DNA of 64,000 nt, from the NCBI GenBank assembly GCA_030390025.1, contig CM059431.1, positions 155,188,001 through 155,252,000 on the forward strand. The letters are read 5' to 3'. A program made the translations under genes and the position numbers. Of this stretch, positions 1 to 64,000 are shown piece after piece; the first letter of the stretch is position 1, and the number at the start of each line of letters is the position of its first letter. The stretch comes from Squalus acanthias (Eukaryota). A model generated the notes under the pieces. It saw only the letters and a list, made by a program, of their open reading frames with translations, had not been told where the DNA came from and did no database searches.

Positions 1-365
1 GCTCAGCTTCCTGAGCCACCACCACCTATCCAGGGGAATCCGTCCCTTGCAGGTGAGACACACATGTTTCCCCTCAGTGACACTGACCCTTGTAGCAACG
101 ACCTGTACCCTGGGGCACGGGATGGAGGCCTCCCCGTATGTGAACCCGGTCTGGCTGGAGTATTCTGTAGAGTTAAACCCTAGCAACCCTGGCCAGCTTC
201 CCTCATGGAAGTAAATAGCGAGCCCCTCCACACCCGGTTTGCCACCCCAGCGGTAACGATCGGCGCTCTCTCTCCCGAGCACCCATAAATGTGGGAGTCC
301 TCCACGTCACCTTCGTCGCCGATGCTCACCCCTACCAGGGCGAGCAGGAGCAGAACCTTTGTCAT
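1..365 (-). pseudogene. env: env-like glycoprotein N-terminus, disrupted
   Basis: ATG at 365 begins MTKVLLLLALVGVSIG (signal-peptide-like) and follows a splice acceptor (gtccctacag|, AG at 380-379). It lies downstream of pol. Stop at 182-180; an adjacent frame continues GFNSTEY... with an N-glycosylation sequon. Confidence 0.55.
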
Positions 366-1084
366 GCCGATTTCTTCTCTGTAGGGACACACAAATCAAA
401 TAGCCCTGTCCCGAGAAGGTTCTCTGGCTTGACAGGTGATCGAGTCTCGAAAATTGAAACTTACTTAGGTAAAATAAACTCACTAAAACTAAAACTACCA
501 AAACTGTAAAACACACCTAAAATACACTTTAAACTCTGTACATACGCCGCCCGTCTCTGGACGGCCAGGCTAAATCCAGTATGGCCTCTGTCTTGGCAGC
601 TTCTGAGCAGCCTGTTCTGCTGGGCGTAAGGTGGCCGTTACCGCAGGACCTTGAGAGTCCTTCTTAAAACAACTGAGGGTTTCCCTGAATCGCTGATAAT
701 CCGGGGAGTGTCCCCTCCTGTGCTACATCACACCGCCCCATTTGTTGTGGCTGCTGAGGCACTATCCTGTTCTGTGGGTTCCTCGCAGCCTGTGGCCGCT
801 GCCTGGGGATCCCTTTTCTTGGAATTAACCCTGACTTTGGCTATTCTCTTTCGGGTCGCAGCCCTTGCTGGGCTGAACCATTGAAGCTCTGGCGTCCACG
901 ATAGTTTTGGCTGTGGTGTGCGAGGAGACCTTCTTAGGACTCTCGCTACCGAGGGTGCGTCCGAGTCCCACATAATTGGTGGGGTGGCCCCTCCGGTGCG
1001 GTCTGTGAGTCTGCCACAGCTACATGCTGAGGATCTCTACCTTTAGGGCGTATCGCCTTTGCTGGCTGTTCCCCTTTGGGTTTA

Positions 1085-1368
1085 AACAGCTTACACTGGT
1101 TCATGTGGAATCACTTTGTCCGACGGGGCATCGTTATGGCGTAGACCGTCGGGCCTGACTTGTCGACAACGCTGTACAGCCCCATGTAGAGTGGTTCGAA
1201 ACTCTCTACCCGGGCAAAATTCCTAACCATGACCTGATCCCCTATCTCCCACTCGTGGTGCTTGCGGAGTTATAGCAGCAGTCGGTTACTCCGATGCTGT
1301 TTTCCCATGTTGCTAGCAGCCTGCCAGTGAACCTGTTTAAGGTTTTCAAACAGATTCCTGACGAAGCT
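1085..1368 (-). pseudogene. pol: Integrase C-terminal (GPY/F, SH3-like) region
   Basis: Manual translation WEIGDQVMVRNFARVESFEPLYMGLYSVVDKSGPTVYAITMPRRTK*FHMNQCKLF, with two in-frame stops in the region. Confidence 0.75.
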
Positions 1369-1414
1369 GTAGAAACATAGAAACATAGAAAATAGGTACA
1401 GGAGTAGACCATTC

Positions 1415-3140
1415 TGGGTGGGCGTGTTATGGGTGAGCAGGGTGATGGGAGATGTGCCTGTGAAGCTCAGTGATCTTTTCACAGCCCAGTGAGAGGCGAA
1501 GAGGTGCCTCTCACAGTTGGAATAGCACTTCTCCACATCGGTGAGTATCCTGGAGGAGTAAACCACCGGTCCCAGCCGGCCGTGCCTCACTTGGAGCAGC
1601 ACGGCACTCAGACTGTCCCCGCTGGCTGCCACCTCCAGGAAAAACTTACTCTCCCCATCAATAGCCACTGGAGCCGGTGCGGTCTGCAGATCTTTCTTTA
1701 ACTTGAGAAAGGCTGCCTCGCAACCCTCGTCCAAGGCCCACTCCACGCCCTGTGCAGGAGTCGGAGCAGAGGGGCTGCGGTGTCTGGATAATCCTCAATA
1801 AAATCTCTGCAGTACCCGGTTAGCCCAAGAAAGGATCTCACTCCTGTGACTGTGTTGGGGGCTGGTAACGTCTGCACTGCTTCCCTACTAGCTTTGTCGA
1901 TGGCCCTTTCCCCAGCGCGCACAGTTAGCCCTAGGCATTTTACTTCCTGTTGACCGTTCTGTAACTTTTTGGGGTTTACCTTGAAGCCTTCTTGCCGGAG
2001 CAGCTCCAGCAGTTCAGCCGGTAGTGGACCGTGTTCCACTCCCTCATCGGTGGACAGGAGTAGGTCATCCACATACTGTATCAACTGCCGGGGCTGGCTA
2101 AAGCTCTTCAAACAATTCGCCATGCATTGGTGAAAAATGCTAGGGCTGTTGTGGAAGCCCTGAGGTAGGCAGTTCCAGGTGTACTGTTGGCCTTTAAAAG
2201 TGAAGGCGAACTTGTACTGGTCCTCTCTTCGTAAAGGGATGTACCAAAGCCCGTTGGAAATGTTCAGCACTGTGAAAGTGGTCGCAGATGCTGGGATACT
2301 TCCGATGAGGTCGGCGACGGCTGCTACCGTGGGTGCACAGTCGGGGATGTTACGGTTGAGTACCCGATAGTCCACTGTGGCCCTCGAGGAGTTGTCCGGT
2401 TTTCTAACCGGCCACAGTGGAAAGTTTACATGTGTGGCTATCGGTCTCAATACCCCCTGTGCTACTAAAGAAGCCATGGCCTTTTCCATGTCGGCTTCTG
2501 CATCCCTGGGGAAATTGTACTGCTTCTGTGGTTGGGTCATGGGGTCCCCGCTGACAATAACCTCGACCCCGTTTACCCTCCCATAATCGTGCTTGTGAGT
2601 GGCAAATGCTGCGAGGTGTACTCGCACAAATGCCTGATATGCCATCAGAGTGTTACTGACCATTCGATCGAGGTCGTAACCTTCCTTTGGTTTCAGGGTG
2701 CAAAAGGTCCCCTTGCCCTGTTTCCCTGGGATGACTGCCACTTCACTTTCTCTGCCTGTACATGCTCCCCACAGACAGTGGTTCCTAAGATCCACTCGAA
2801 TCCTTAGGCCTATGATAATGTTGGCCCCCAGGATAACCGTCCCTTCCCATTCCCAGTTCATCAGGACACAGGTCCTCTTGGTGTGGAGTGCTCCTAAATG
2901 AATAGACAGCGGGATGGAGAACGAGCCAGCCTGCTCGTTACCTGCAAACCCCACTAAACTGTACGGGACCCAATTAGACAGAGGTGAGGCGGCGGAGTTC
3001 CCTGAATAGACTATGGTGCTGAAAGTTCCAGTATCTAACAGATAATTCACTTTCACCTTCTCTACTTCCATCTTAACGAGTGGTCTCTTCCAGGCGTCGT
3101 ACTCCAAGAGACACAGGTAGACAGGCTGCGCTGGTTCCAG
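1415..3140 (-). pseudogene. pol: Protease - reverse transcriptase - degenerate RNase H/tether
   Basis: ORF 1698..3107 has YLLDTG, WPVRKPD, VDYRVLN, FAFTF, LPQGFHNSP, QYVDDLL, RSFLGLTGYCR. After a frameshift near 1750, ORF 1270..1746 carries FFLEVAAS...VVYSSRILT...ERHL. Confidence 0.92.
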
Positions 3141-3805
3141 TCATGAGTCTGATTTGCGGGGTGTTGGGGGGCAATGGGGTTAAAGCACCAGTGGCGGTGG
3201 CAACTTTCCCCGGGCCGTTGACTAGAGCTCGGATTACGGCCATGACCGAGTCTAGCTTGGGGGAAGTGGTCGGTGCTTCGCTGCTTGGGGCAGGTGCTGG
3301 GGAGTTCTTCCCTACGTTATACTTCCACGGAATCCTACAGTCTTTTCTCCAATGCCAACTCTTCCCGCAACCGAAGCAGTTACGATTCGTGTCAGAAGGG
3401 TTACCCCCTTCCTGGTGCCAGTCTTTCCTTTTACTAGGCCTTATTTCGTGGACCTTTCCCTCAGGTGGGTGCTCTTCTGTTCCTCTACCATTCCGGTAAG
3501 CCAGGGCCAGTGGTCTGACCACTGTCTCCTCGGTGACCCGGGGGTCGTTCGGGTCAAACCGCAGCTCAGATTGGCCCTGATCCGTGGCAAGCTGTTTGCC
3601 ACTAGGCTTCGGAGCAAGTGGGCCATCTCATTCTGATTCAGGTGAGCCCGGTCGAGAACCCAATTACAGGCACTCCTGTACACAGGCCACAGTCGGTCTG
3701 CGAATGCCTGTGGGGTCTCCCCTACTAGCTGGGTTGTCTTCTCCACCCAGGAGAAGGGACTACCATCATTCATTCCCATGGCCTGCAGAACTTCCTCCCG
3801 GATAG
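3073..3805 (-). pseudogene. gag: gag C-terminal half (capsid and nucleocapsid), frameshifted
   Basis: ORF 3441..3779 (QLVGETPQAFADRL, capsid-like) and ORF 3073..3522 with the CX2CX4HX4C knuckle CFGCGKSWHWRKDC. Confidence 0.85.
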
Positions 3806-3811
3806 CAGCGT

Positions 3812-5783
3812 ATCACTAAGTGGTATGCCAGAACATTTGGAATTTTTTAGAAACCAGCAAAGGATGACTAAAAAATAATAAAAAGGTGGAAAATAGATTA
3901 TGAGAGTAAACTAACAAGAAATATAAAAACAAACAGTAAAGCTTCTCCAAGTATATATAAGGAAGAGAGTTGCTAAAAAAAAGTGTTGGTCCCTTAGAGG
4001 CTGAGACTGGGAATTAATAATGGAAACAAGGACATGGCATGGACATTCAACAAATATTTTGCATCTGTCTTCACGGCAGAATACACTAAAAGAATCCCAT
4101 TAATAATAGATAATCAAGGGGCAAAGGTGAGGGAGGAACTTAAAACAATCACTATCACTAGAAAAAAAGTACTAGGCAAACTAATTGGACAAAAGGCTAA
4201 CAAATCCGTTGGGCCTGATGGCTGCATTCTAGGGTCTTAAAAGAAGTGGCTGCAGAAATAGTGAATGCATTGGTTGTAATCTTCCAAGGTTCCCAGATTC
4301 TGGAAAGGTTCCAGCGCAATGGAAAACCGCTAATGTAACGCCCCTTTTCAAGAAAGGAGCGAGACAGAAATCAGGAAACTATAGGCCAGTTAGTGTAACA
4401 TCTGTCATTGGGAAAATGCTGGATTCCATTATTAAGGGAGTAGCAGCACGACTGTTAGAAAATCATAGTACAATCAAGCAGAGTGTACATGGTTTTATGA
4501 AAGGGAAATCGTGATTGAAAAATTTATTTGAGTTGTTTGTGGATGTAACGATCAGGGTGGATCAATGGGAATCAGTAGATGCAGCGTAATTGGATTTCCA
4601 AAAGGCATTCGCTAAGGTACCAAATAAAAGGTTACTGCACAAGATAAGAGCTCACGGTGTTGGGGGTAATATATTAGCATGGATAGAGGATTGGCTAACT
4701 AACAGAAAACAGAGAGTGGGGATAAATGGGTCATTTTCAGGTTGGCAAACTGTAACTAGTGGGGTGCCACAGGGATCAGTGTTGGGGCCTCAATTATTTA
4801 CAATTTATTTCAATGACTTGGATGAATTGACCGAGTGTACTGTAGACAGGTTTGCTGAGGATACAAAGATAGGTGAGAAAACAAGTTGTGTGGAGGGCAT
4901 CAAGTGTCTGCAAATCGATATAGATAGGTTAAATGAGTGGGCACAAAAATTGGCAGATGGAGTATAATTTGGGAAAATGTGAGGTTATCCACTTTGGTAG
5001 TAAGAATGGAAAAGCAAAATATTATTTAAATGGAGCGAGACTGCAGAATGCTGCGATACAAATGGATCTGGTTGTCCTCGTACATGAAACACAAACAACT
5101 TCGCATGCAGGTATAGCAAGTAATTAGGAAGGCAAATGGAATGTTGGCCTTTATTGCAAGGGAGATGGAGAATAAAAGTAGGGAAATCTTGCTACAACTT
5201 TACAGGGCGTTGGTGAGACCACACCTGTACTACTGCGTACAGTTTTAAGTCTCCTTATTTAAGGAGGGATCTTCTTGCATTGGAGGCAGTTCAGAGAAGG
5301 TTCACGAGATTGATTCCTGTGAAAGAAGGGTTGTCTTATGAGGAAAGGTTGAGCAGGTTGGGCCTATTCTCATTGGAGTTTCGAAGAATGAGAGGTGATC
5401 TTATTGAAACATAAGATTCTGAGGGGGTTTAACAGGGTAGATGCTGAAAGGATGTTTCCCCTAGCGGGGGACTCTAGAACTAGGGCGCATAGTTTAAGGA
5501 TAAGGGGTCGCCCATTCAAGACGGAGATGAGGAGGAATTTCTTCTCTCAGAGGTTCGTGAATCTTTGAAATTCTCTACCTCAGAGAGCTGTGGAGGCGGA
5601 GTCATTGAATATATTTAAGGTGGAGATAATTGAGCTACAGGAGAGTCAAGGGTTATGGGAAACTGGCAGGAACGTGGAGCTGAGCCAAAGATCAGATCGG
5701 CCATTATCTTATTGAATGGCGGAGCAGGCTCGAGGGTCCAAATGACCTACGCCTGCTCCTATTTCTTATGTTCTTATGTTCTT
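3812..5783 (+). mobile_element. CR1 LINE, 5'-truncated, decayed ORF2
   Basis: RT fragments (DFQKAF, GVPQGSVLGP, FAEDTK) and a 3' tail of ttcttatg repeats. Confidence 0.9.
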
Positions 5784-5984
5784 ACCTGCTGCTGGAATAC
5801 TTAGAATTGCTTTGATGTATCTTATTTGGTGGATGGCGATTTAGCTATGTAGCAGGATGGAAAAGGAAGCAGAAAAGATCATCAGGCATGGGACAGATGG
5901 AAAGGAAAGCAGGACGAGAATCAGATATAGACCAAGAGGGTGGATGGAAATGAGATAGATCGGGCACGGAGCGTAGAAAATAAT

Positions 5985-8690: not shown

Positions 8691-9934
8691 TCTTCAGAGT
8701 TCAGCTTGAAGAAGAGGAGGAAAGGAAGGGCAAAGGGCCAATTAGAATTGCTGCAGGTGGGGGACTGAATAAATGCTTGGGGAGAGTGTTAGGGACGGAG
8801 GAATATTGTAGAGCTGCAGGCGTTTACAGGTGCAATGTGACATTCAGGCATTGAGCAGGTGGAATCAAAATACATCTGCGGAAGGGAAGTTACGGCAGAA
8901 TAAGACATAGAGCTGATGGGAATGGAAACCGGGGAAGAAAGAAAAATGGATCCGGCTGCGAATGGAAGCAAACATTAAAACTAAGGAGCTGAATAAGCGA
9001 GAGCAACAGACAGGTAAAAGGCATTGATTTCAGGCACGATGCAGTGGGAGCCGGAAACAGACTGGGAGCAGCAGCACAGAGAAGCAGGAAAGGAAAGAGA
9101 CACAGAGGAATCACAAGATGTAACATGAACTTTTAACATTCATATTAAATAAAAATTCTGGTTCGCAATTTAATTTAATGTTCAGAGTTTCTCACTCTCA
9201 CAATAAATTGAATCCGTTGGCAAACAGTTAAAAGAAAGATTAAATTAAAATGGGATATTACATCACCAGCACTACAAGTTAACAAGCCGATGAAGCGGAG
9301 TTTAACCCACACATTTGCTCAGTAGTTCCAGTACGTGAAACTTGGAGCCTGAAAACCATGAATTCGACCAACCTGATAAAGGCCCAAACTGTTACTCATT
9401 AACTAGAGACTATTTGCCGGAGATTATAATCATCGATCTTTGTCCCTCGCTATCTCTTCCCTTTCATAGTCCTTTAATACGTATTTTTATGGTGAGTAAT
9501 TAAATTAGATCCCGGCTACAGAACCCGGTTTCACTTTGGGGTCTTCTGAACAGCAGATGGAAGAGCTAGGATAATATGTATTCATTGTTACCACACAGAG
9601 GAGTAATGACTTTGCCTAAAAGTTGAATTCTTTCAATTTGCATCAGACCATTTGTGATTCAGATCGAGATTTGCACCAGGAATCAGCCCGATGAGGGATT
9701 TTAATGATCAGGCTGATCTTGACTGAAGGTTGTGTTCATGACTGTGTTGTGTAACTGACCTTCAACCAGGGTGTGTTCATTAACCGCCAGAACCCACAAC
9801 GCTAATTAACCCAGAAGCTCTGGAACTGCACAAAGGAACCGCAGCACAAGGTAAGGACGTCGAATATTCTGAGCACAATTATGGTGTTTTAATTCAACGA
9901 AATTGCCGTTTATTTGTGAAGTAGTGCAAAGAAA

Positions 9935-20834: not shown

Positions 20835-21247
20835 CCTTACCTGGTCTCTGGAGCCTTTTATAGACCCACTGCCGCCGCTGAAACTCCCGCCGACGCTCTG
20901 AGGCCTTACCTGGTCTCTGGAGCCTTTTACAGGCAAACTGCCGCCGCTGAAACTCCCGCCGACTCTCTGAGGCCTTACCTGGTCTCTGGAGCCTTTTATA
21001 GGCCCACTGCCGCCGCTGAAACTCCCGCCGACGCTCTGAGGCCTTACCTGGTCTCTGGAGCCTTTTATAGACCCACTGCCGCCGCTGAAACTCCCGCCGA
21101 CGCTCTGAGGCCTTAGCAAGTCTCTAGAGTTTTGTATAGGCCCACTGCCGCCGGTGAAACTCCTGCCGACGCTCTGAGGCCTTATCTGGTCTCTGGAGCC
21201 TTTTATAGGCCCATTGCCGCCGCTGAAACTCCCGCCGACGCTCTGAG
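20835..21247 (-). repeat. Six 69-bp tandem monomers in the CR1 5' UTR
   Basis: Unit ccttacctggtctctggagccttttataggcccactgccgccgctgaaactcccgccgacgctctgagg, period 69. Confidence 0.95.
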
Positions 21248-35869: not shown

Positions 35870-37237
35870 CCTTGGGGTGGGGCTGGGTCCGCAGATTGTC
35901 AGTGTCGGGCTGGGTGAGTGCAGTGTTATGTTGTGTGAGTAGGGTTACGTTGTTGGGTTGGGTCAGTGGAGTATCGGTGATGGGTTAGGTAGTGAGGTGT
36001 CACTTTATGGCTGCGTCAGTGGGGTGTCGGTGTTGGCCTGGGTCAGTGAGGGTGTAGGTGTTGGTCTGGGTCAGGGGGGTGTCGGTGTTGGGCTTGGTCA
36101 GTGAGGGTGTCGAAGCTAGGTCAGTGGGGTGTCGGTGTTGGGCTGTGTCAGTGAGGTGTCGGTGTTGGTCTGGGTCAGTGGGGTTTCACTGTATGGCTGC
36201 ATCAGTGGGGTGTCGTTGTTGGGCTGTGTCAGTGAGGTGTCGGTTTTGGGCTGGGTCAGTTATGTGTCTGTGTTGGGCTGGGTCAGTGGGGTGTCGGGGT
36301 TGCGCTGGGTCAATGATGGTGTCGGTTTTGGTCTGGGTCAGTGAGGTGTCGGTGTTGGCCTGGGTCAGTGAGGGTGTCGGTGTTTTGGTCTGGGTCAGTG
36401 GGGTGTCGGCGTTGGGCTGGGTCAGTGAGGGTGTCGAAGCTAGGTCAGTGGGGTGTCGGTGTTGGGCTGGGTCAGTGAGGGTGTCGAAGCTAGGTCAGTG
36501 GGGTGTTGGTGTTGGGCTGGGTATGTGTGGTTTCGGTGTTGGGCTGGGTCAGTGGGTTGTCGGGTTGTGGCCGGGTCAGTGTGTTTCGGTGATGTGCTGG
36601 GTCAGTGTGGTATCGTTGTAGGGCTGGGTCAGAGAGGATGTCGGTTTTGGCCTGGGTAAGTGGTGTGTCGGTTTAGGACTGGGTCAGAGAGGGTGTCGGT
36701 GTTGGGCTCTGTCACGGGGTGTCGGTATAGGACTGGGTCAGTGGGATGTCGGTGTAGGACTGGGTCAGTGAGGGTGTCGGTGTTGGGCTGTGTCAGTGAG
36801 GTGTCGGTATAGGACTGGGTCAGTGGGGTGTCGATGTAGGACTGGGTCAGTGAGGCTGTCGGTGTTGCGTCAGTGAGGGTGTCGGTCTAGGTCTGATCAG
36901 TGGGGTGCCGGTGTTGGAATGGTTCAGTGGGGTGCCGGTGTTGGTCTGGGACAGTGGGGTGTTAGAGTGGGGAATGGGTCAGTGGGGTGTCGTTGTTTGA
37001 CTGGGTCAGTAGCGTGTCGGTGTTGGGTCAGTGAGGGTGCCGGTGTTGGGTTGGGTCAGTGGGGTCTCGGTGTTGGCCTCGGTGAGTGGGTTGTCGTTGA
37101 CTAGCTGGGTCAGTGAGGATGTCGAGGCTGGTCAGTGAGGGTATTGTGGCTGGTCAGAGAGGGTGTTGGGGTTGGGTCAGAGAGGATGTTGGGGTTGGGG
37201 CAGTGAGTGTGTCGCGGCTGGGTCAGTGAGGGTGTCC
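35870..37237 (+). repeat. GT-rich minisatellite, unit about 29-30 bp
   Basis: Many degenerate copies of gggctgggtcagtg(a/g)gggtgtcggtgtt. Confidence 0.92.
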
Positions 37238-43089: not shown

Positions 43090-43780
43090 GCAGGAGGCCA
43101 CCCCGAGTTGGGCAGAGGTGAGAGGCATTTGGGAACAAAAATAGGATAGCGATAGTGGTGGGAGATTCTATAGTCAGGTGAATAGACAGACTCGTCTTCA
43201 GCCCTGAGCAGGTGCCAATTGGGAATATGCATCCCTGGTGCCAGAGAGAAGAACAATCTGGGAAGGAAAGGAGAGGAGAAATTACCCATGGTCGGAATCA
43301 GTAACACGGATAGAAATACGTTTATAGAGGTAATATTGAGACTGAGGCACTAGATTAAAGACAAGGTCTCAAGCTGGAGATCTCTGGATTGTTTTGCACT
43401 GGGCCGCTTCATGAGGGAAATATGAGGCAGGTCAATGTGAGACTGCTTGGCTGGAGTAAGGGGCAAGAGTTCAAATTCTTGGGGCAGGAAGGTGAGATCA
43501 GGGAAAAGGGAAGGGACGGCCGCGATCTGAACCCACCAACAACAATGGTTTCACAGAATAGTTGAATGAAGCAGTGGGAAGGGTATCAGCTGATATGATT
43601 AGTGTGACAAATATCCGCATCTGAGACTACAGAGTGGAATTAATGAAGCTGTTAGAGCTGAAACAGTATATTTATGAAATACTGAAAAATTTTGAGCAGG
43701 AAAAAGGAAGGTTGTTTTCGAATAGTGATAGATGAAGTCACCTGATGTTAAAAAAAATGAAATAAACAAGTGTCAATATT
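43090..43780 (+). mobile_element. Very old CR1 ORF1 (esterase-like) remnant, including duplication block Z copy 2
   Basis: Degenerate gcgatagtggtgggagattctatagtcagg (AIVVGDSIVR) and ...ccctggtgccag. Confidence 0.6.
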
Positions 43781-46700
43781 CGGTTGCAGTAAAATCAGCG
43801 GGCGCGGCTGGAGAGCACCAGACTTCGGAGGCAGTAAAAGCAGCGGGAGCGGCTGGAGAGCGCCAGACTCCGGGGAAAGGAAAAACAGCGGGAGCGGCTG
43901 GAGAGCGCGATACTTCGGCGGCAGTAAAAGCAGCGGGAGCGGCTGGAGAGCGCAAGACTCCGGGGAAAGTAAATGCAGCGGGAGCGGCTGGCGAGCGCGA
44001 GAATTCGGGGACAGTAAAAGCAGCGGTAGCGGCTAGAGAGCGCGAGACTTCGGCGGCAGAAAAAGCAGCGGGAGCGGCTGGAGAGCGCGAGACTTCGGCG
44101 GCAGTAAAACCAGCGGGAGCGGCTGGGGAGCGCGAGACTTCGGCGGCAGAAAAAGCAGCGGGAGCGGTTGGAGAGCGCAAGACTTCGGCGGCAGAAAAAG
44201 GAGCGGGAGCGGCTGAGATACAAAATACCGGTGAGTGTAAAGGAGTAAAAAGTAATCGAAGTGTCACGTCAACAGTAAGCAGGTAAATGATTGGTTGATG
44301 AGTATTTCTCTATTTCTCGCTTTTTTCCAAACTTGGGCGTCTAAATTTAAGTACCTTGGTGTAGATTAAAAGATATACGTGTTCCAATGTGACGTCGGCG
44401 CAGGGGAAGAAGCTGATTAGTGAATAGTGATTGAGCGTTGTTTTTTCTTCAATTTTAAGTCTATTTTTTTAAGGTAGTTCATAGTTAAGGTAGTTCGGGA
44501 GACCCAGAATCCGAGAGTTTAAATTTGAGGTAAGAGTTTTTTAATTAAGGTTATGGCAGGGTACCTCAGTCCCGTGCGTTGCACGTCCTGCAGCATGTGG
44601 GAATTCCTAGACGCTTCTTGCAGTCAGGATGACCACATGTGCAGTAAGTGCCAGTGGTTTGGCCAACTGGAGATCCGGTTTTCGGAGCTCGAGCATCAGC
44701 TGGAGGCACTGCGGTGTATCCGCGAGCTTAGACTTACATGGATAGCACGTTTTTGGACGTGGTTACGCCGCAGAATTATAAAGTGCAGTCAGAGAGGGAA
44801 TGGTAGTTCACCAGTCAGAAGAAGGGGGGCAGGCCGGTAGTCAGGAGAGCCCCAGAGTGCATCTCACTCAACAACTGTTATTCTGTGTAGGAAATGCGTG
44901 AAATTGACGGTTCCTCTGGGGAGAGCAGCCAGAGCCAAGTTCACGGCACTGTGGGTGGCTCAGCTGCACAAGGGGGGAGAAGTAAAAGTGGAAGTGCAAT
45001 AGTGGTAGGATACTCAATAGTGAGGGGTGCAGACAGTCGTTTCTGCGGCCGAAGAAGTGACTCCAGGATGGTAAGTTGCGTCCGTCGTGCCAGGGTCAAG
45101 AATGTAACTGAACGGCTGCAGGGCATTCTGAAGGGGCCGTGCGAAAAGTCCGAGGTCGTGGTTCATATTTGTACCAACTACATAGTTAGAAAGATAGATG
45201 AGGTCCTGCAACAAGAATTTAGGGAGCTAGGTAGCAGATTAAAAAGCAGGACCGAAAAGGTTGAAATCTCTGGATTACTCCCGGTGCCACGTGCTAGTGA
45301 GTATAGGAATAGGAGGATAGAGCAAATTAATGCAAGGCGAAAGAGTTGGTGCAGGAGGGAGGGCTTTAGTTTCCTGGATCATTGTGTCTGTTTCTGGAAA
45401 GGTGGGCCCTGTAGAAGTCGGACGGGTTGCATCAGGACCAATATCCTTGCGGGGAGGTTTGCTAGTGCTGTTAGGGGGAATTTAAACTAACTTGGCAGTG
45501 GGGTGGGATACGGCGTGGAGCTATAGTAGGGGGTGATGCGCAGCCAAATATAGAGGAAAAAACAAGTCAGTTTGGAAGTCAGAGCAAATATGTAACGGCA
45601 CAAGTGAGTATGGCAAATCTGGCGGGCATTCATTTCAATGCAAGTAGTCTTGCGAGTAAGGCATATAAATTGAAGTTGTTGATGAACACATGGGAGTATG
45701 ATATTGTTGCTATCACGGAGACAAGGTTGAGGGAGTGCCAGGACTGGCATCTCATTATTACGGGGTATAGAATCTTCAGGCGAGACAGATGTGGGTGTAA
45801 AAGAGGAGGGGGTGTCGCAATATTAATCAAGGAGTCAATTACTGCAGTAAGGAGGGATGATATCATAGCAGGTTCCTCTAATGAGGCCATATGGGTAGAA
45901 CTTAAAAACAAAAAGGGGGCAAGCACTTTCCTAGGAGAGTACAATAGGCCCCCAAACATTCAGGGGCGATAGAGGAACAGATATGTAGGCAAATCTCAGA
46001 TAAATGTAGATGTAATAGGGTAATAATAGTAGTTGTTTTCAACTTCCCCAATAGTAACTGGGATAGTCAGAGTGTGAAAGGCTTAGAGGGTGCTGAATTC
46101 TTAAAGTGCATCCACGAGAGCTTTTTGAGCCAACTTGTAGAAATTCCTACAAGAGAGGGGGCGGTACTGGAACTAATTCTAGGGAATGTAGCGGGGCAAG
46201 TGGTAGAAGTGTCAGTAGGAGAGCATTATGGTGACAGTGACCGTAATACGGTGAGATTTAAGGTAGTCATGGAAAAGGACAAAGATGTACCGGAGATAAA
46301 GATTCTAAATTGGGGGAATGCCGATTTTAATTTGAGAAGGGAGGATCTGGCCAAAGTGGACTGGGATCAGCTACTAGTAGGAAAATCCATATCAGAGCAG
46401 TGGGAGTTATTCAGAAAGGAAATAGAGAGAGTACAGTTCCAACATATTCCCGTATAGGTCAAGGGTGGGACCAACAAGGCCAGGGAACCCTGGATGTCAA
46501 GGGATATACAAGAATGGATTTAGGAAAAAAATGGAGCCTTTTGGCAGATACAAAGGACCAAAAACAGTGGAAGCCCTACAGGAGTATATAATGTGCAGAG
46601 GGGTACTTAAGAAAGAAATTAGGAATGCGAATAGGGGTCAATAAAGAACACTGGTGTGCAAACTAAAGGAATATCCCAAGGTGTTTTATAAGAATATTAG

Positions 46701-49084: not shown

Positions 49085-51962
49085 GCCGAGGGGGTGGGGC
49101 TGGGTCGGTGGGTAGACGGGGCTGGGTCGGTGGTGGGACGGGGTTGGTTTGCTGAAAGGGCGGGGCTGGGTCGGTTGGGCGGCGGGGGATTGTTTTCTGA
49201 GGGGGCGGGGCTGGGTCGGTGGGTAGACGGGGCTGGGTCGGTGGTGGGGCGGGGTTGGATTGCTGAAATGGCGGGGTCTGGGTCGTTGGGGGGCCGGGGG
49301 ATTGATTTCTGAGGGGGCGCGGAAGGGTCGGAGGGTAGACGGGGCTGGGTCGGTGGTGGGGCGGGGTTGGATTGCTAAAAAGGGCGGGGCTCGGTCGGTG
49401 GGGAGGCGGGGATTGTTTTCTGAGGGTGCTGGGCTGGGTCGGTTGTTAGAATGATCTGTGTCAGTTTGGGGTGGAGATGTATATCTGTGGTGTCGGAGAT
49501 TGGTGGGGATGGATTGCTGAGGGTTCGGTTGGGGGGTCAGGGGTGAGGTGGGGTTTGCTGATGGATGACTAAGGGGGCGGGGCTGAGTCGGTGTGGGGCA
49601 TGGCTGGGGCGTTGGGGGGTGGGGATTGATTGCTGACGGATCGGGGCTGGGTCGGTGGGTTGTGAGTTTGGGTCGATAGGGGATGGGAATGGATTTCTGA
49701 GGGGGCGTGGTTGGGTCTGTGGGGGAGCGGAGCTCGGTCGGTGGGGCGTGGGCCTGGATTGCTTGGGTCGTGGCTGAGTCGGTGGCTGGAAGGGGTTGGT
49801 CGGTAGGGTCTTGGGATGATTTGCTGTTGGGGAACGTTGGGTTCGGTGAATAGATGGGGCGGCGTCGGTGGGGGCTGGGGATGATTTGTCGAGGGGGCGG
49901 CTCTGGGTCGATGTGGGGGCGGGGATGGGTCGGTGTGGGGGCGGGGATTGGTCGGTGTGGGGGCGGGGATGGGTCGGTCGGGCTTCGGGATGGATTGCTG
50001 TGGGGAAGGGGCTGGGTCGGTGGGTGGACGGTGCTTGGTCGGTGGTGGGGTGGAGATGGGTCGGTGAGGGTGCAGGGATGAGTCGGTGGAGGCTGGGGAT
50101 GATTTGCTGAGGAGGAGGCTCTGGGTCAGTGGGGGGGATGTGATGGATTGCTCTGGGGGCGGGGCTGGGTCAGTGGTGGGTGTGGAGTTTTTGACCGTGG
50201 TTGGTCGGTGTCACTGGTTAGACAGGGCTGGGTCGGAGAGGGTTGGGGATGATTTGCTGAGAGTGCGGGGCTGGGTCGGAGGGGGGTGGTGGAGGATTGC
50301 TGAAGTGACGAGGCTGGGTCGGTGGGGGAGCGGGGCGAGATTGGTGAGCGGGCGTGGCTTGGTCAGTGGATGTTGAGGATGGATTGTTCAGGGGTGGGGC
50401 TCGGTCTGTGGGGGCGGGGCTGTGGCGCTGTGGGGTGCGAATGGATTGCTGAGGGGGCGGGGCTTTGTCGGTGTGGGAGGCGGGGCTGTGTCGGTGGGTG
50501 GTGTGGATGAGTTGCTGACGGGGCGGGGCTGGTACGGTAGGGTGCGGGGCTGGGTCGGGTGCGGTGGGGAGAGTTTGCTCGCGGTGTGTCTGTGTCGGTG
50601 GGGGTCGAGGATTGGTCGGTGAGGGGTGCGAATGGAATCGCTCAAGGGGCAGGGCTGTGTCGTGGAGCAGACGGTGATGGTTCGGTACGGTTTGGGGATG
50701 GATTTCAGAGGGGGCGGTGCTGTGTCGGTGGGTAGACGGGGCTGGGTCGGTGGGTGTTGGTGTTGGATTGCTGGGGGGCGGGGCTGGGTCATTGAGTATG
50801 CGGGGCTGGGTCAATGGGATGTGGGGATCGATTTCTGAAGGGGCGAGGCTGGGTCATTGAGTATGCGGGGCTGGTTCGCTGGTGTGTAGGGATCGGTTGC
50901 TGAGGGGGCGGGGCTGGGTCATTGAGTGTGCAGGGCTGGGTCGGTGGGGTGTGTGGATCGATTTCTGAGGGGGCGGGGATGGGTCATTGAGTATGCGGGG
51001 CTGGGTCAGTGGGGTGTGGGGATCGATTGCTGAGGGTGCGGGGCTGGGTCATTGAGTATGCGTGGCTGGGTCGGTGGGGTGTGTGGATCGATTGCTGAGG
51101 GGGCGGGGCTGGGTCGGTGGTGTGGCGGGGATGTTTCGGGCGGGGGCGGGGATTGATTGCTGAGGTTGCGAGGCTGGTTTGGTTGGTAGACGGGGATGGG
51201 TCGGAGGGAATACTGGACTGGGTCGGTGGTTGTTGGTGTTGGATTGCTGAGGGGGCGGGGCATGTGTCATTGAGTATGCGGGGCTGGGTCAGTGGGCTGT
51301 GGGGATCGATTTCTGAGGGGGCGAAGCTGGGTCATTGATTATTCGGGGCTGGGTCGGTGGGTTGTGGGCATCGATTGCTGAGGGGGCGGGGCTGGGTCGG
51401 TGGTGTGGCGGGGATGTTTTAGGGCGGGGGCGGGGATTGATTGCTGAGGTTGCGGGGCTGGTTTGGTTGATAGACGGGGCTTGGTCGGTGGGAATACTGG
51501 GCTGGGTCACTGGGGGGTGGGATTGATTTGCTGAGGGGTTCGGTGCTGGGTCGGTGGTTAGACGGTTCTGGTCGCTGGGGTTTGGGGATGATTTGATGAG
51601 GGTGCAGAGCTGAGTGGGTTGGTTAGCTGGGTCGGTTGGAGGTGGGGATGTATTGCTGATGGGCGGGGCTAGTTCGCTGGGTAGACGGGGCTGGGTCGGT
51701 GGTGTTGAGGAAGGTTCACTGGAGTGGCAGAGTGATTCTGTTTCAGTGGTTTGTGGGGTATTGAACAGTGGTGTGCGGTGCTGGGTCAGGGGGTGTAGGT
51801 CCTGGTCAGTGGGGTGTGGGGTGGGTCAGTGGGGTGTGGGGCTGGGTCAGTGGGGTTTGGAGTGTTCAGTGGGGTGTGGGGCTGGGTCAGTGGGGCTTCG
51901 ATGTTTGGCTGTGTCAGTGGGATGGATGAACAAAAGCACTTGAACTACACAGGGTCAGTGGG
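49085..51962 (+). repeat. G-rich degenerate minisatellite, about 2.9 kb
   Basis: Repeats of gattgctgagggggcggggctgggtcggtgg; the right end grades into gggctgggtcagtggggtgt. Confidence 0.92.
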
Positions 51963-61799: not shown

Positions 61800-64000
61800 T
61801 AATCCAAATTTCAGGATTGCAAGGAACACGCCAAGACACAATGGCTCGTATTTTCCGATGCCTACGTGTGAGTACACGCGATGTACATACACGTAGGGAC
61901 ATCGGTAATGCCGGTTTCAGGCATGCGAAGCGAATGCGCTGAAAACCGGCATTTCGGACCTGTCAAGAATCATACATAGATACATACATAGAAGATAGGA
62001 GCAGGAGTAGGCCATCCGGCCCTTCGAGCCTGCTCCGCCATTTAATGAGATCATGGCTGATCCTTCAATTCAGTATCCCGTCCCCGCCTTCTCTCCGTAA
62101 CCCTTAACCCCTTTTGCCTGTAGAAATATATCTAATTCCCTCTTAAATATATTTAATGAGCTGGCGTACACTGCCCTCTGTGGCAATGAGTTCCACAGGT
62201 TCACCACTCTCTGAGTGAAGAAATTCCCCCTCATTTCTGTCCTAAATGGTTTAGCCCTTATCCTTAAATTATGTCCTCTAGTTCTGTTCTCACCCGCCAA
62301 GGGAAACATTCCTTCTGCATCTAATCTGTCTAGACCTGTCAGAATTTTATACACTTCTATGAGGTCCCCTCTCAATCTTCTAAACTCCAGTGTGTACATC
62401 CCTAAACTACATAGTCTCTCCTCATAGGTCAATCCCGCCATTCCTGGTATCAGCCTGGTGAATCGCCGCTGCACCCCCTCCATGGCAAGAACATCTTTCC
62501 TCAGATGAGGCGACCAAAACTGTACACAGTACTCGAGGTGTGGTCTCACCAGTGCCCTGTACAGCTGCAGCAAGGTATCCCTGTTCCTGTATTCCAACCC
62601 TTTTGCTATGAAGGCCAGCATACCGTTTGCCTTCTTGACCGCCTGTTGCACCTGCATGCTCGCCTTCAGTGACTGGTGTACAAGAACACCCAGGTCTCTC
62701 TGTACTTCCCCCTCTCCCAATTTATTGCCATTTAAATAATAATTTGCCCTCCCGTTCCTGCACCCAAGGTGGATAACTTCGCACTTGTCCACATTATAGT
62801 GCATCTGCCATTTATCCGCCCAATCACCCAGTCTGTCCAAATCGCTCTGGAGCTTCCTGGTCTCCTCCTCTGAGCCCACCCCCCCTCCTAGTTTAGTGTC
62901 GTCTGCAAATTTGGAAATGCTGCATTCGACTCCCTGATCCAGGTCATTAATATAAATTGTGAACAGCTGGGGACCCAGGACAGATCCCTGTGGTACCCCA
63001 CTTGTTACTGCCTGCCATTCAGAAAATGAGCCGTTTATTCCAACTCTCTGTTTTCTATCTGACAGCCAGTTCTCTATCCACGTCAATACTTTCCCCTTTA
63101 TCCCATGAGCTTCAATTTTCCATGCTAATCTTTTATGTGGGACCTTATCGAAGGCCTTTTGGAAGTCCAGGTACACCACATCTACTGGCTCTCCCCCATC
63201 TATTTTACCAGTTACTCCCTCAAAAAATTCCAATAGATTAGTCAAGCACGATTTACCCTTTGTAAATCCATGTTGACTCTGTCCTATCCTGTCCCCATTT
63301 GCTAAGTGCTCGGCTATTTCATCCTTAATGATGGACTCCAGCATTTTGCCCACAACTGATGTAAGGCTTACAGGTCTGTAATTACCTGCTTTTTCCCTAC
63401 CCCCCTTTTTGAATAGTGGGGTAACGTTAGCTACCCTCCAATCCATGGGCACTGTTCCCGAGTCTAATGAATTCTGAAAAATCATGCTTAGTGCATCCGC
63501 TATCTCTAGGGCCACCTCCTTCAGTACCCTAGGATGCATGTTATCAGGCCCTGGGGATTTGTCCGCCTTCAATCCCTTTAGCTTCCTTAACACCATATCC
63601 TTAGAGATATTGATTTGCGTCAGTTCCTCCTTTGCCAATGTCCCTATTTTTCCCGATATCCCAGGGAGGTTTTTTGTGTCTTCCTTCGTAAAGACTGACC
63701 CAAAGTATGCATTTAGTTGGTCTGCCATTTCCTTATTTCCCATTATATATTCCCCCGTATCTGACTGCAATGGACCAACTTTGGTTTTCACCAGTCTTTT
63801 CCTCTTGATATACTTATAAAAGCTTATAAAATCATCTTGGCAGATCGGACGCTTGCCCCAGAGAAGGGCCTCTGCGGCTGGAGATTTCCGCTGCAGGACA
63901 ACCGCTCTTGAAAACACTTAAAAATCGTACTCCTGGTAAAAGCAGGCGTAAGGCCTGCTTTCCCCAGCACAAGAATTTAAAAAAGTAAAAAATTATATAT
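61800..64000. mobile_element. MITE-like DNA element split by a young CR1
   Basis: Shares tgcgctgaaaaccggc with the MITE at 37730. The flanks rejoin as ctgtcaag-aatcat-cttggcag. Confidence 0.6.
61974..63829 (-). mobile_element. Young 5'-truncated CR1 LINE with uninterrupted RT ORF and 6-bp TSD
   Basis: ORF 62070..63917 is open throughout (YLDFQKAFDKVPH, GVPQGSVLGP, FADDTKL); its first ~30 aa are flanking DNA. AATCAT occurs at 61968-61973 and 63830-63835. Confidence 0.95.

Follow-up and report, generated by a model that had tools for sequence, protein, structure and literature searches.

A deleted copy of a high-copy endogenous retrovirus in Squalus acanthias, with a polymerase among those of canonical retroviruses and a probable F-type envelope

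A 64,000-nucleotide stretch of the Squalus acanthias genome (GenBank assembly GCA_030390025.1, contig CM059431.1, positions 155,188,001 to 155,252,000; hereafter the window) opens with a retrovirus-like element in which an RNase-H-fold segment behind the reverse transcriptase (RT) has lost its catalytic residues. A reading made from the sequence alone had assigned the element to a basal retrovirus-like lineage and likened its architecture to that of the lokiretroviruses, the sister group of the retroviruses. The locus thus raises the question of which lineage the element belongs to, and what kind of envelope it carries. We propose, with a probability of roughly 0.8, that it is a dead, deleted copy of a high-copy endogenous retrovirus (ERV), whose pol groups with canonical retroviruses, likely in a grade related to snakehead retrovirus (SnRV), and whose envelope protein (Env) is likely of the F type with an Ig-like head.

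Three-frame translation and Pfam searches of the minus strand, from 3812 to 1, revealed a partial gag, a UGA codon, protease (PR) and RT, the inactive RNase H fold (hereafter the tether), an integrase (IN) tail and the start of env (Table 1). The parts listed by the sequence-only reading, namely a gag CCHC knuckle, PR, RT with YVDD, an RNase-H-fold segment with replaced residues, an IN tail and an open reading frame (ORF) with a signal peptide, are all present in this translation. PR-RT forms an open frame of 480 codons that contains DTG and YVDD. Frameshifts interrupt gag (near 3570–3579) and place the tether in another frame than RT (near 1707–1752), and the 3' end of the tether is cut off. 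The IN C-terminal segment matches SH3_Tf2-1 and MLVIN_C (E 0.005–0.009). In blastn comparisons with related copies from the same genome (sister copies, described below), most of these are longer by about 1.63–1.65 kb at the 1413/1371 gap, confirming that a deletion of about 1.6 kb removed the second RNase H, the IN zinc finger and the IN core. The env and a 3' long terminal repeat (LTR) interrupted by a long interspersed nuclear element (LINE) extend about 8.1 kb past window base 1 (LTR match 90%, L040). No match to the 5' LTR, or to roughly the initial 290 codons of gag as sampled, was found anywhere in the 64-kb window. The window copy is unable to replicate: it is frameshifted and lacks the 5' LTR, the primer site, half of gag, the RNase H and the IN core.

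We examined the family to which this copy belongs by searching the S. acanthias genome with the tether, which gave 40 scored matches (92–100%) from 2452 first-look candidates. Searches with the LTR and env gave 4977 and 10088 first-look candidates, figures that are not copy numbers. The ERV family is large and high-copy. Sister copies were studied in 10-kb stretches around the 19 best of the 39 non-self tether matches listed. Coverage of the second RNase H, the integrase zinc finger and the integrase core reaches at least 95% in all 19, with the motifs IYVDG (17/19), SAQQAEL (17/19), TIC.DS (18/19) and.ADELA (13/19); the sequence-only reading had correctly supposed the second RNase H and the IN core to be deleted in the window copy. 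A natural sister-copy pol ORF of 1120 amino acids has the order PR-RT-tether-RNase H-IN, and gave Pfam matches above cut-off to RVT_1, RT_RNaseH_2, RNase_H (E 2e-19), Integrase_H2C2 and rve (E 4e-15). The sister copies show the retroviral layout of LTR, primer-binding site, gag, pol, env, polypurine tract and LTR, with PR-RT-RNase H-IN order and target duplication. The search for other copies that had been suggested for this locus thereby recovered LTRs, primer site, second RNase H and full env.

The LTRs are about 1484 bp long with TG...CA ends, and a short G-rich tract lies ahead of the LTR. In a survey of 30 loci, both LTR ends were recognisable in 24, of which 16 were solo LTRs; a 4-bp target duplication flanks 11 of these 16, a 3-bp duplication flanks two, and three have none. 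Kimura two-parameter divergence between paired LTRs is 0.04–0.14 (five of seven pairs aligned), and the target duplication of the provirus matched in one of three LTR pairs inspected. A primer site 3' of the 5' LTR, visible in seven sister copies, has its complement at the 3' end of a tRNA gene that occurs twice, exactly, in the genome, and that ARAGORN calls Arg(TCG). In the window copy and 11 of the 19 sister copies, the gag UGA stands directly ahead of pol; the other eight fall outside this pattern. Gag and pol share one frame wherever both ORFs are open. The UGA is likely a readthrough site. A review counts the SnRV gag-pol stop, and the UGA of other aquatic retroviruses, as readthrough (PMC13517186).

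Several further features of the family were observed. Seven copies on different contigs (L031, L032, L033, L035, L036, L037 and L038) carry a LINE in env at about 8760–8890, in element orientation and apparently at one site; because the site appears identical in all seven, amplification seems to have started from a copy that already carried the LINE. At L101 and L111, LTRs are preceded by a purine tract and followed by a primer site, as in tandem proviruses. L119–L122 contain two LTR pairs only about 3.3 kb apart, representing internally deleted elements, and the 4-bp duplication matches where both ends could be read. L126 and L127 are small tRNA clusters with Ser-GCT and Arg-TCG, plus Lys-CTT in L126, and the length of their Arg and Lys genes (91–92 nt) suggests introns.

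The dead tether had been the basis for the comparison with lokiretroviruses. The motifs FFLEVAAS, CERHL and LLTHNTP can be read in the window as the sequence-only reading had spelled them; the last, however, is LLTHHTP in 15 of the 19 sister copies, and the GPY reported for the IN tail is GLY in the window and GPY in the sister copies. The dead tether motifs recur in 18, 17 and 15 of the 19 sister copies, respectively, which makes the loss a family-wide trait and not decay of the window copy. The tether aligns with the connection domain of murine leukemia virus (MLV), and its counterparts in frog, coelacanth and turtle-type ERVs as well as in SnRV are no less degenerate. Since it is common to MLV, SnRV and other retroviruses, a dead tether is not diagnostic of lokiretroviruses. 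Wang and Han place the decay of the tether before the split of lokiretroviruses and retroviruses (PMC7947760).

To place the polymerase, trees were built with references labelled by visual comparison with the supplementary RT alignment of PMC9040795 (SnRV, five to seven lokiretroviruses, and proteins like those of walleye dermal sarcoma virus, gammaretroviruses and ERV-L). To these were added rows taken from viral contigs (true foamy viruses and SnRV) and one foamy-like ERV from the S. acanthias genome; the SnRV reference was identified through a viral contig of 10,688 nt (L176), which it matches at 99%. The closest database proteins to the family are one relative at 82–85%, followed by frog and coelacanth proteins, and the best sequence matches in the Protein Data Bank (PDB) are the RTs of MLV and xenotropic MLV-related virus, with Ty3 and foamy RT close behind. 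The window RT is 48–51% identical to frog and coelacanth ERVs, 46% to SnRV and 31–39% to five lokiretrovirus proteins. In RT trees (230 columns), the family lies among the canonical retroviruses, with SH-aLRT support of 99 in a 75-row tree and support of 98/98 in a 47-row tree. In trees of RT plus tether (408–411 columns), lokiretroviruses and gypsy sequences are split from all remaining rows (100/100 and 100/99), and the rows nearest to the family are frog ERVs (support 95/88 and 84–86). A forced clade with the lokiretroviruses was rejected on RT plus tether by the approximately unbiased (AU) test (p = 0.00016 and p = 0.0024); the lokiretrovirus link that the sequence-only reading had drawn is not supported.

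One row in the loose RT cluster of the family, P0144, matches by eye CmiERV lineage I in the supplement of PMC4422223, an elephant shark lineage that was grouped with SnRV (Han 2015, PMC4422223). Cartilaginous-fish ERV RTs have been found mostly in clade III (10.1101/2023.10.17.562709). These comparisons suggest that the nearest relatives are likely the frog, coelacanth and elephant-shark ERVs of the SnRV-related grade (clade Huo, or class III). In agreement with the basal position proposed earlier, the family branches close to the base of the tree of retroviruses, although the base of the retrovirus part is poorly resolved in every tree.

Several points weigh against this placement. A clade with SnRV received 62/78 in the RT tree, and no tree supports it well; SnRV was placed with epsilon and gamma viruses in RT plus tether trees (83/96 and 86/93), and a forced clade of the family with SnRV was not rejected on the same data (p = 0.33). 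With RT alone, forcing a clade with the lokiretroviruses cost 28 lnL and was not rejected either (p = 0.088). Row sets differed between trees, and class II retroviruses, Odin and CGIN1 were not included. The careful trees were run with LG+G4 and no mixture, the 75-row mixture-model RT tree being a quick search only.

The same data bear on a second possibility, that the family is a separate lineage at the base of the canonical retroviruses, outside the SnRV clade, which kept an ancestral F-type Env and a lokiretrovirus-like integrase. SnRV stands apart from the family in both RT plus tether and IN trees at a poorly resolved base, and the likeness to SnRV Env described below could reflect shared ancestry, since foamy Envs also give a weak signal; yet a clade with SnRV is not rejected by the AU test, and the family shares with SnRV the gag-pol readthrough layout and probably also a primer site of the tRNA-Arg type. 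Published trees put the related CmiERV lineage I with SnRV (PMC4422223), and we regard a separate basal lineage as unlikely. It overlaps with the SnRV-related placement and differs from it only in how the grade is drawn.

A divergent lokiretrovirus, or a sister lineage of the lokiretroviruses that would be the first in cartilaginous fish, is in our view very unlikely. Its dual RNase H and its F-like Env with a basic cleavage site as in lokiretroviruses (PMC7947760) would fit, as would the RT-only AU result and an integrase that is 42–45% identical to that of lokiretroviruses, compared with 37% for SnRV and 30–33% for foamy viruses. The lokiretroviruses nevertheless form their own 99–100% clade without the family in every tree, and the RT plus tether AU tests largely refute the grouping. 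In the IN tree they are again a clade of their own with the family outside, not firmly separated from it; SnRV is not grouped with the family there, and the base is poorly resolved. An integrase sister to CGIN1 is a lokiretroviral trait. The family has the RT motif PQGFHNSP, as in SnRV-type viruses, in place of CPFGYxNSP in most lokiretroviruses or LPFGYVNSP in Odin. Lokiretroviruses resemble the family in having a tether, a second RNase H and a similar integrase (PMC7947760, PMC9040795), and their Env has a signal peptide, a basic cleavage site, coiled coils, a transmembrane (TM) segment and a resemblance to Mononegavirales F (PMC7947760). They differ in their separate RT clade, in an Env without a described Ig-like head, and in the smc ORF, which was not seen in the family copies read. 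They are not marked present in the six chondrichthyan genomes listed in PMC7947760, if the asterisk is taken as the presence mark.

An origin as a Ty3/gypsy (errantivirus-like) retrotransposon that acquired an F-type env is extremely improbable. The tether does match gypsy-type RT_RNaseH profiles, and Baculo_F and Gypsy env clusters appear in the ESM Atlas search below, but the gypsy sequences form a separate 99–100% clade, so that the trees refute this origin, and all 19 sister copies carry the second, retrovirus-type RNase H. The earlier view of a retrovirus-like and not an ordinary Ty3/gypsy element was borne out: RT lies outside the gypsy clade, and a tether, an active-type second RNase H and an env occur together, where an ordinary element would have RT inside that clade and, in intact copies, one complete RNase H and no env. 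Odin retrotransposons are characterised by a dual RNase H, an RT sister to that of lokiretroviruses and no env; the env of the family sets it apart from them, Odin RTs having been compared by eye only.

Membership of the Spumaretrovirinae was considered and rejected, since foamy RTs form a separate 100/100 clade without the family and the family has a CCHC Gag. Foamy viruses have a 4-bp target duplication, as in the family. They differ in a Gag without a Cys-His box, and in the family pol is in frame with gag. Foamy Env is F-type class Ib by published structure (PMC11468914), that of the family by inference; the family Env has, in comparison, a short signal peptide and a putative binding module that is N-terminal and not between the subunits. 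Foamy-like ERVs are also present in the same genome (L071–L081), with 11 Foamy_virus_ENV matches, RT upstream in three of six stretches, and 100/100 support with foamy viruses.

Among known systems, the family most resembles the SnRV-related ERVs (clade Huo, PMC6001957; CmiERV lineage I, PMC4422223), with which it shares RT identity of 45–51% (to frog, coelacanth and CmiERV-I-like proteins), a CCHC gag, an in-frame gag-pol stop and a cartilaginous-fish host. An in-frame stop and a CCHC Gag also occur in gamma and epsilon viruses and are thus not exclusive to this group. CmiERV-I has the degenerate tether motifs FHLEVAG...CERHLL by eye; it differs in having a gamma-type Env (immunosuppressive domain, ISD, and CX6CC by eye) and a different primer site, whereas the family combines an F-like Env with LTRs of 1.48 kb and is far more numerous. 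SnRV itself has one CCHC, a gag-pol stop that is UAG instead of UGA, and an Env N-terminus with a similar Cys/Trp Ig-like pattern by eye, but has a longer Env with a large insert, an accessory ORF and a pol insert.

We next consider the envelope. The natural open env frame encodes 780 amino acids, comprising a signal peptide, a head rich in Cys and Trp, a Pro/Thr stalk, about 90 further residues and an RQRR furin site (327–330). After this site come an ectodomain of about 400 residues, with long heptad-rich helices and a beta region rich in Cys, and a TM segment at about 732–755; gamma-type Envs, by comparison, have a short TM subunit. The gamma-type motifs ISD and CX6CC are missing from the family Env, which gave no TLV_coat match (control env E 1e-11). 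The top match in the ESM Atlas was Fusion glycoprotein F0 (0.92, 197/256 features; 11 of 30 matches), level with Baculo_F and Gypsy env clusters. The Env core is collinear with SnRV Env over about 330 residues, with a mean score of 91 compared with 53 ± 5 for shuffles (z 7.7, 0/200 shuffles); three foamy Envs gave z 2.4–3.8, a gamma-type env −0.2 and reversed SnRV 1.0. On this alignment evidence, the family Env is homologous to that of SnRV. It is likely an F-type (class Ib) fusion protein, the kind found in measles virus and RSV, which SnRV also appears to carry. The Env head is likely Ig-like, and an Ig-like fragment also occurs 3' of pol in a frog relative. By analogy, the head may serve as a cell-binding module: gamma-type Envs have an IgV-like binding domain (10.1101/2024.03.17.585361), and F scaffolds tolerate N-terminal binding modules (PMC11468914).

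Other results count against the F-type assignment. Shuffled proteins reach 0.9 in the Atlas in 4–10 of 100 cases. A hidden Markov model of the family Env scored SnRV Env at only 2.5 bits (1/1000 shuffles higher), and profile-profile comparisons were not significant (SnRV Env E 0.068; 12 foamy Envs E 0.058, misplaced by 26 columns). Pfam PF00523 (fusion glycoprotein), to which lokiretrovirus Envs show similarity, did not match the family Env. AlphaFold2 models from 11- and 27-row alignments had low confidence (pLDDT 30.6 and 32.7), for which reason the F fold is inferred, and at E ≤ 0.001 Foldseek retrieved no counterpart of these models from PDB or BFVD. The matches of the head were also weak (Ig_3 E 0.004–0.2; Atlas leads 0.87–0.89), as were those of the half-confident part of the first model (pLDDT 50–58) to antibody, nanobody and receptor Ig domains in Foldseek (E 0.006–0.02). 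An Env sequence search against the PDB gave no match. A PF00523 search of the genome was uninformative, as neither the search nor its control matched anything.

Named Env homologues (53–81% identity) come from skate and sawshark only, which supports an elasmobranch host and agrees with the chondrichthyan host supposed from the sequence. A further protein search with the Env core returned only three chondrichthyan proteins, and metagenomes scanned for elements related to that of the frog, as a source of more distant envs, yielded none. Several env subfamilies occur in the S. acanthias genome (L128–L157), with 68–95% identity to the studied env and many with long open frames. Sawshark gene models annotated as zinc-finger, Niban-like and cadherin-like (P0056, P0058 and P0062) contain env pieces, either as annotation artefacts or as exonised ERV sequence.

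A complete copy might work as follows. Transcription would start from the 1.48-kb LTR, and Gag-Pol would be made by readthrough of the single UGA. tRNA-Arg(UCG) would prime the minus strand, with the dead tether positioning RT and the second RNase H cutting the RNA, while the short G-rich tract would prime the plus strand, and integration would leave the 4-bp duplication. Furin would cleave Env at RQRR. Host-cell binding would fall to the N-terminal Ig-like domain, and the long C-terminal subunit would change its fold in the manner of paramyxovirus F.

As a dead RNase H is ordinary for retroviruses, the envelope is the point of interest. Publications already cover SnRV-related ERVs of cartilaginous fish and the F-like Envs of lokiretroviruses and foamy viruses; an Env of the F type or with an Ig-like head was not found described for the SnRV-related grade, SnRV or shark retroviruses in the literature searched, which excluded most subscription journals. 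For the origin of retroviral env, Wang and Han consider four scenarios possible (PMC7947760), and according to Fernandez et al. the F-like fold separates foamy viruses from orthoretroviruses (PMC11468914). An F-type Env in a retrovirus that is neither foamy nor lokiretroviral, homologous to the Env of the cultivable exogenous SnRV, would if true favour an F-type ancestral envelope. We tentatively suggest, at odds a little short of even, that SnRV and the basal aquatic canonical retroviruses share a homologous F-type (class Ib) Env with an N-terminal Ig-like head, that the ancestral retroviral Env was F-type, as also in foamy viruses and lokiretroviruses, and that gamma-type Env was a later replacement that entered the grade more than once, as in CmiERV-I. 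The homology to SnRV Env makes the question of F-type ancestry testable by structure determination.

Table 1. Features of the window copy and the adjoining LINE (window coordinates)
Feature	Position	Strand	Basis
gag 3' half (capsid C-terminal region and nucleocapsid)	3144..3812	-	tblastn with natural sister-copy gag ORF, 82–90% identity
Single CCHC zinc knuckle CFGCGKSWHWRKDC	3337..3378 (about)	-	translation; sister copy zf-CCHC E 0.004
UGA stop, context UGA-CUG, immediately before pol frame	3141..3143	-	gag and pol in same frame in sister copies L031–L033
Aspartic protease, DTG site	2799..3092	-	Pfam RVP E 0.012
Reverse transcriptase; YVDD 2075–2064	1785..2468	-	Pfam RVT_1 E 6e-27; trees
Tether/connection: RNase-H fold without catalytic residues	1414..1752	-	Pfam RT_RNaseH_2 E 1.6e-17; tblastn; MLV connection domain alignment
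LINE 3' tail, 43 bp, at deletion site	1371..1413	-	blastn gap relative to sister copies; identical tail in LINE insertions
C-terminal portion of integrase (SH3-like, GPY/F-type) plus long pol tail; stops and a frameshift	596..1370	-	Pfam, tblastn
env 5' end, coding for signal peptide and beginning of Ig-like head, with frameshift near 246	1..365	-	tblastn, 87–93% to natural env ORF
Decayed LINE adjoining cut-off gag, outside retrovirus, end approximate	3815..5790	+	ORF fragments; all sister-copy alignments end at 3814

The LINE adjoining the cut-off gag is presumably of CR1/L2 type, a label taken from its motifs. A young CR1-type LINE, its open frame spanning 615 codons, lies at 61985–63917 of the window, and is 98–99% identical to LINEs inserted within or next to two ERV copies nearby on this contig. 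The window also contains G+C-rich minisatellite arrays with periods of 22–69 bp, at 20835–21247, 35951–37235, 43779–44215 and 49088–51895.

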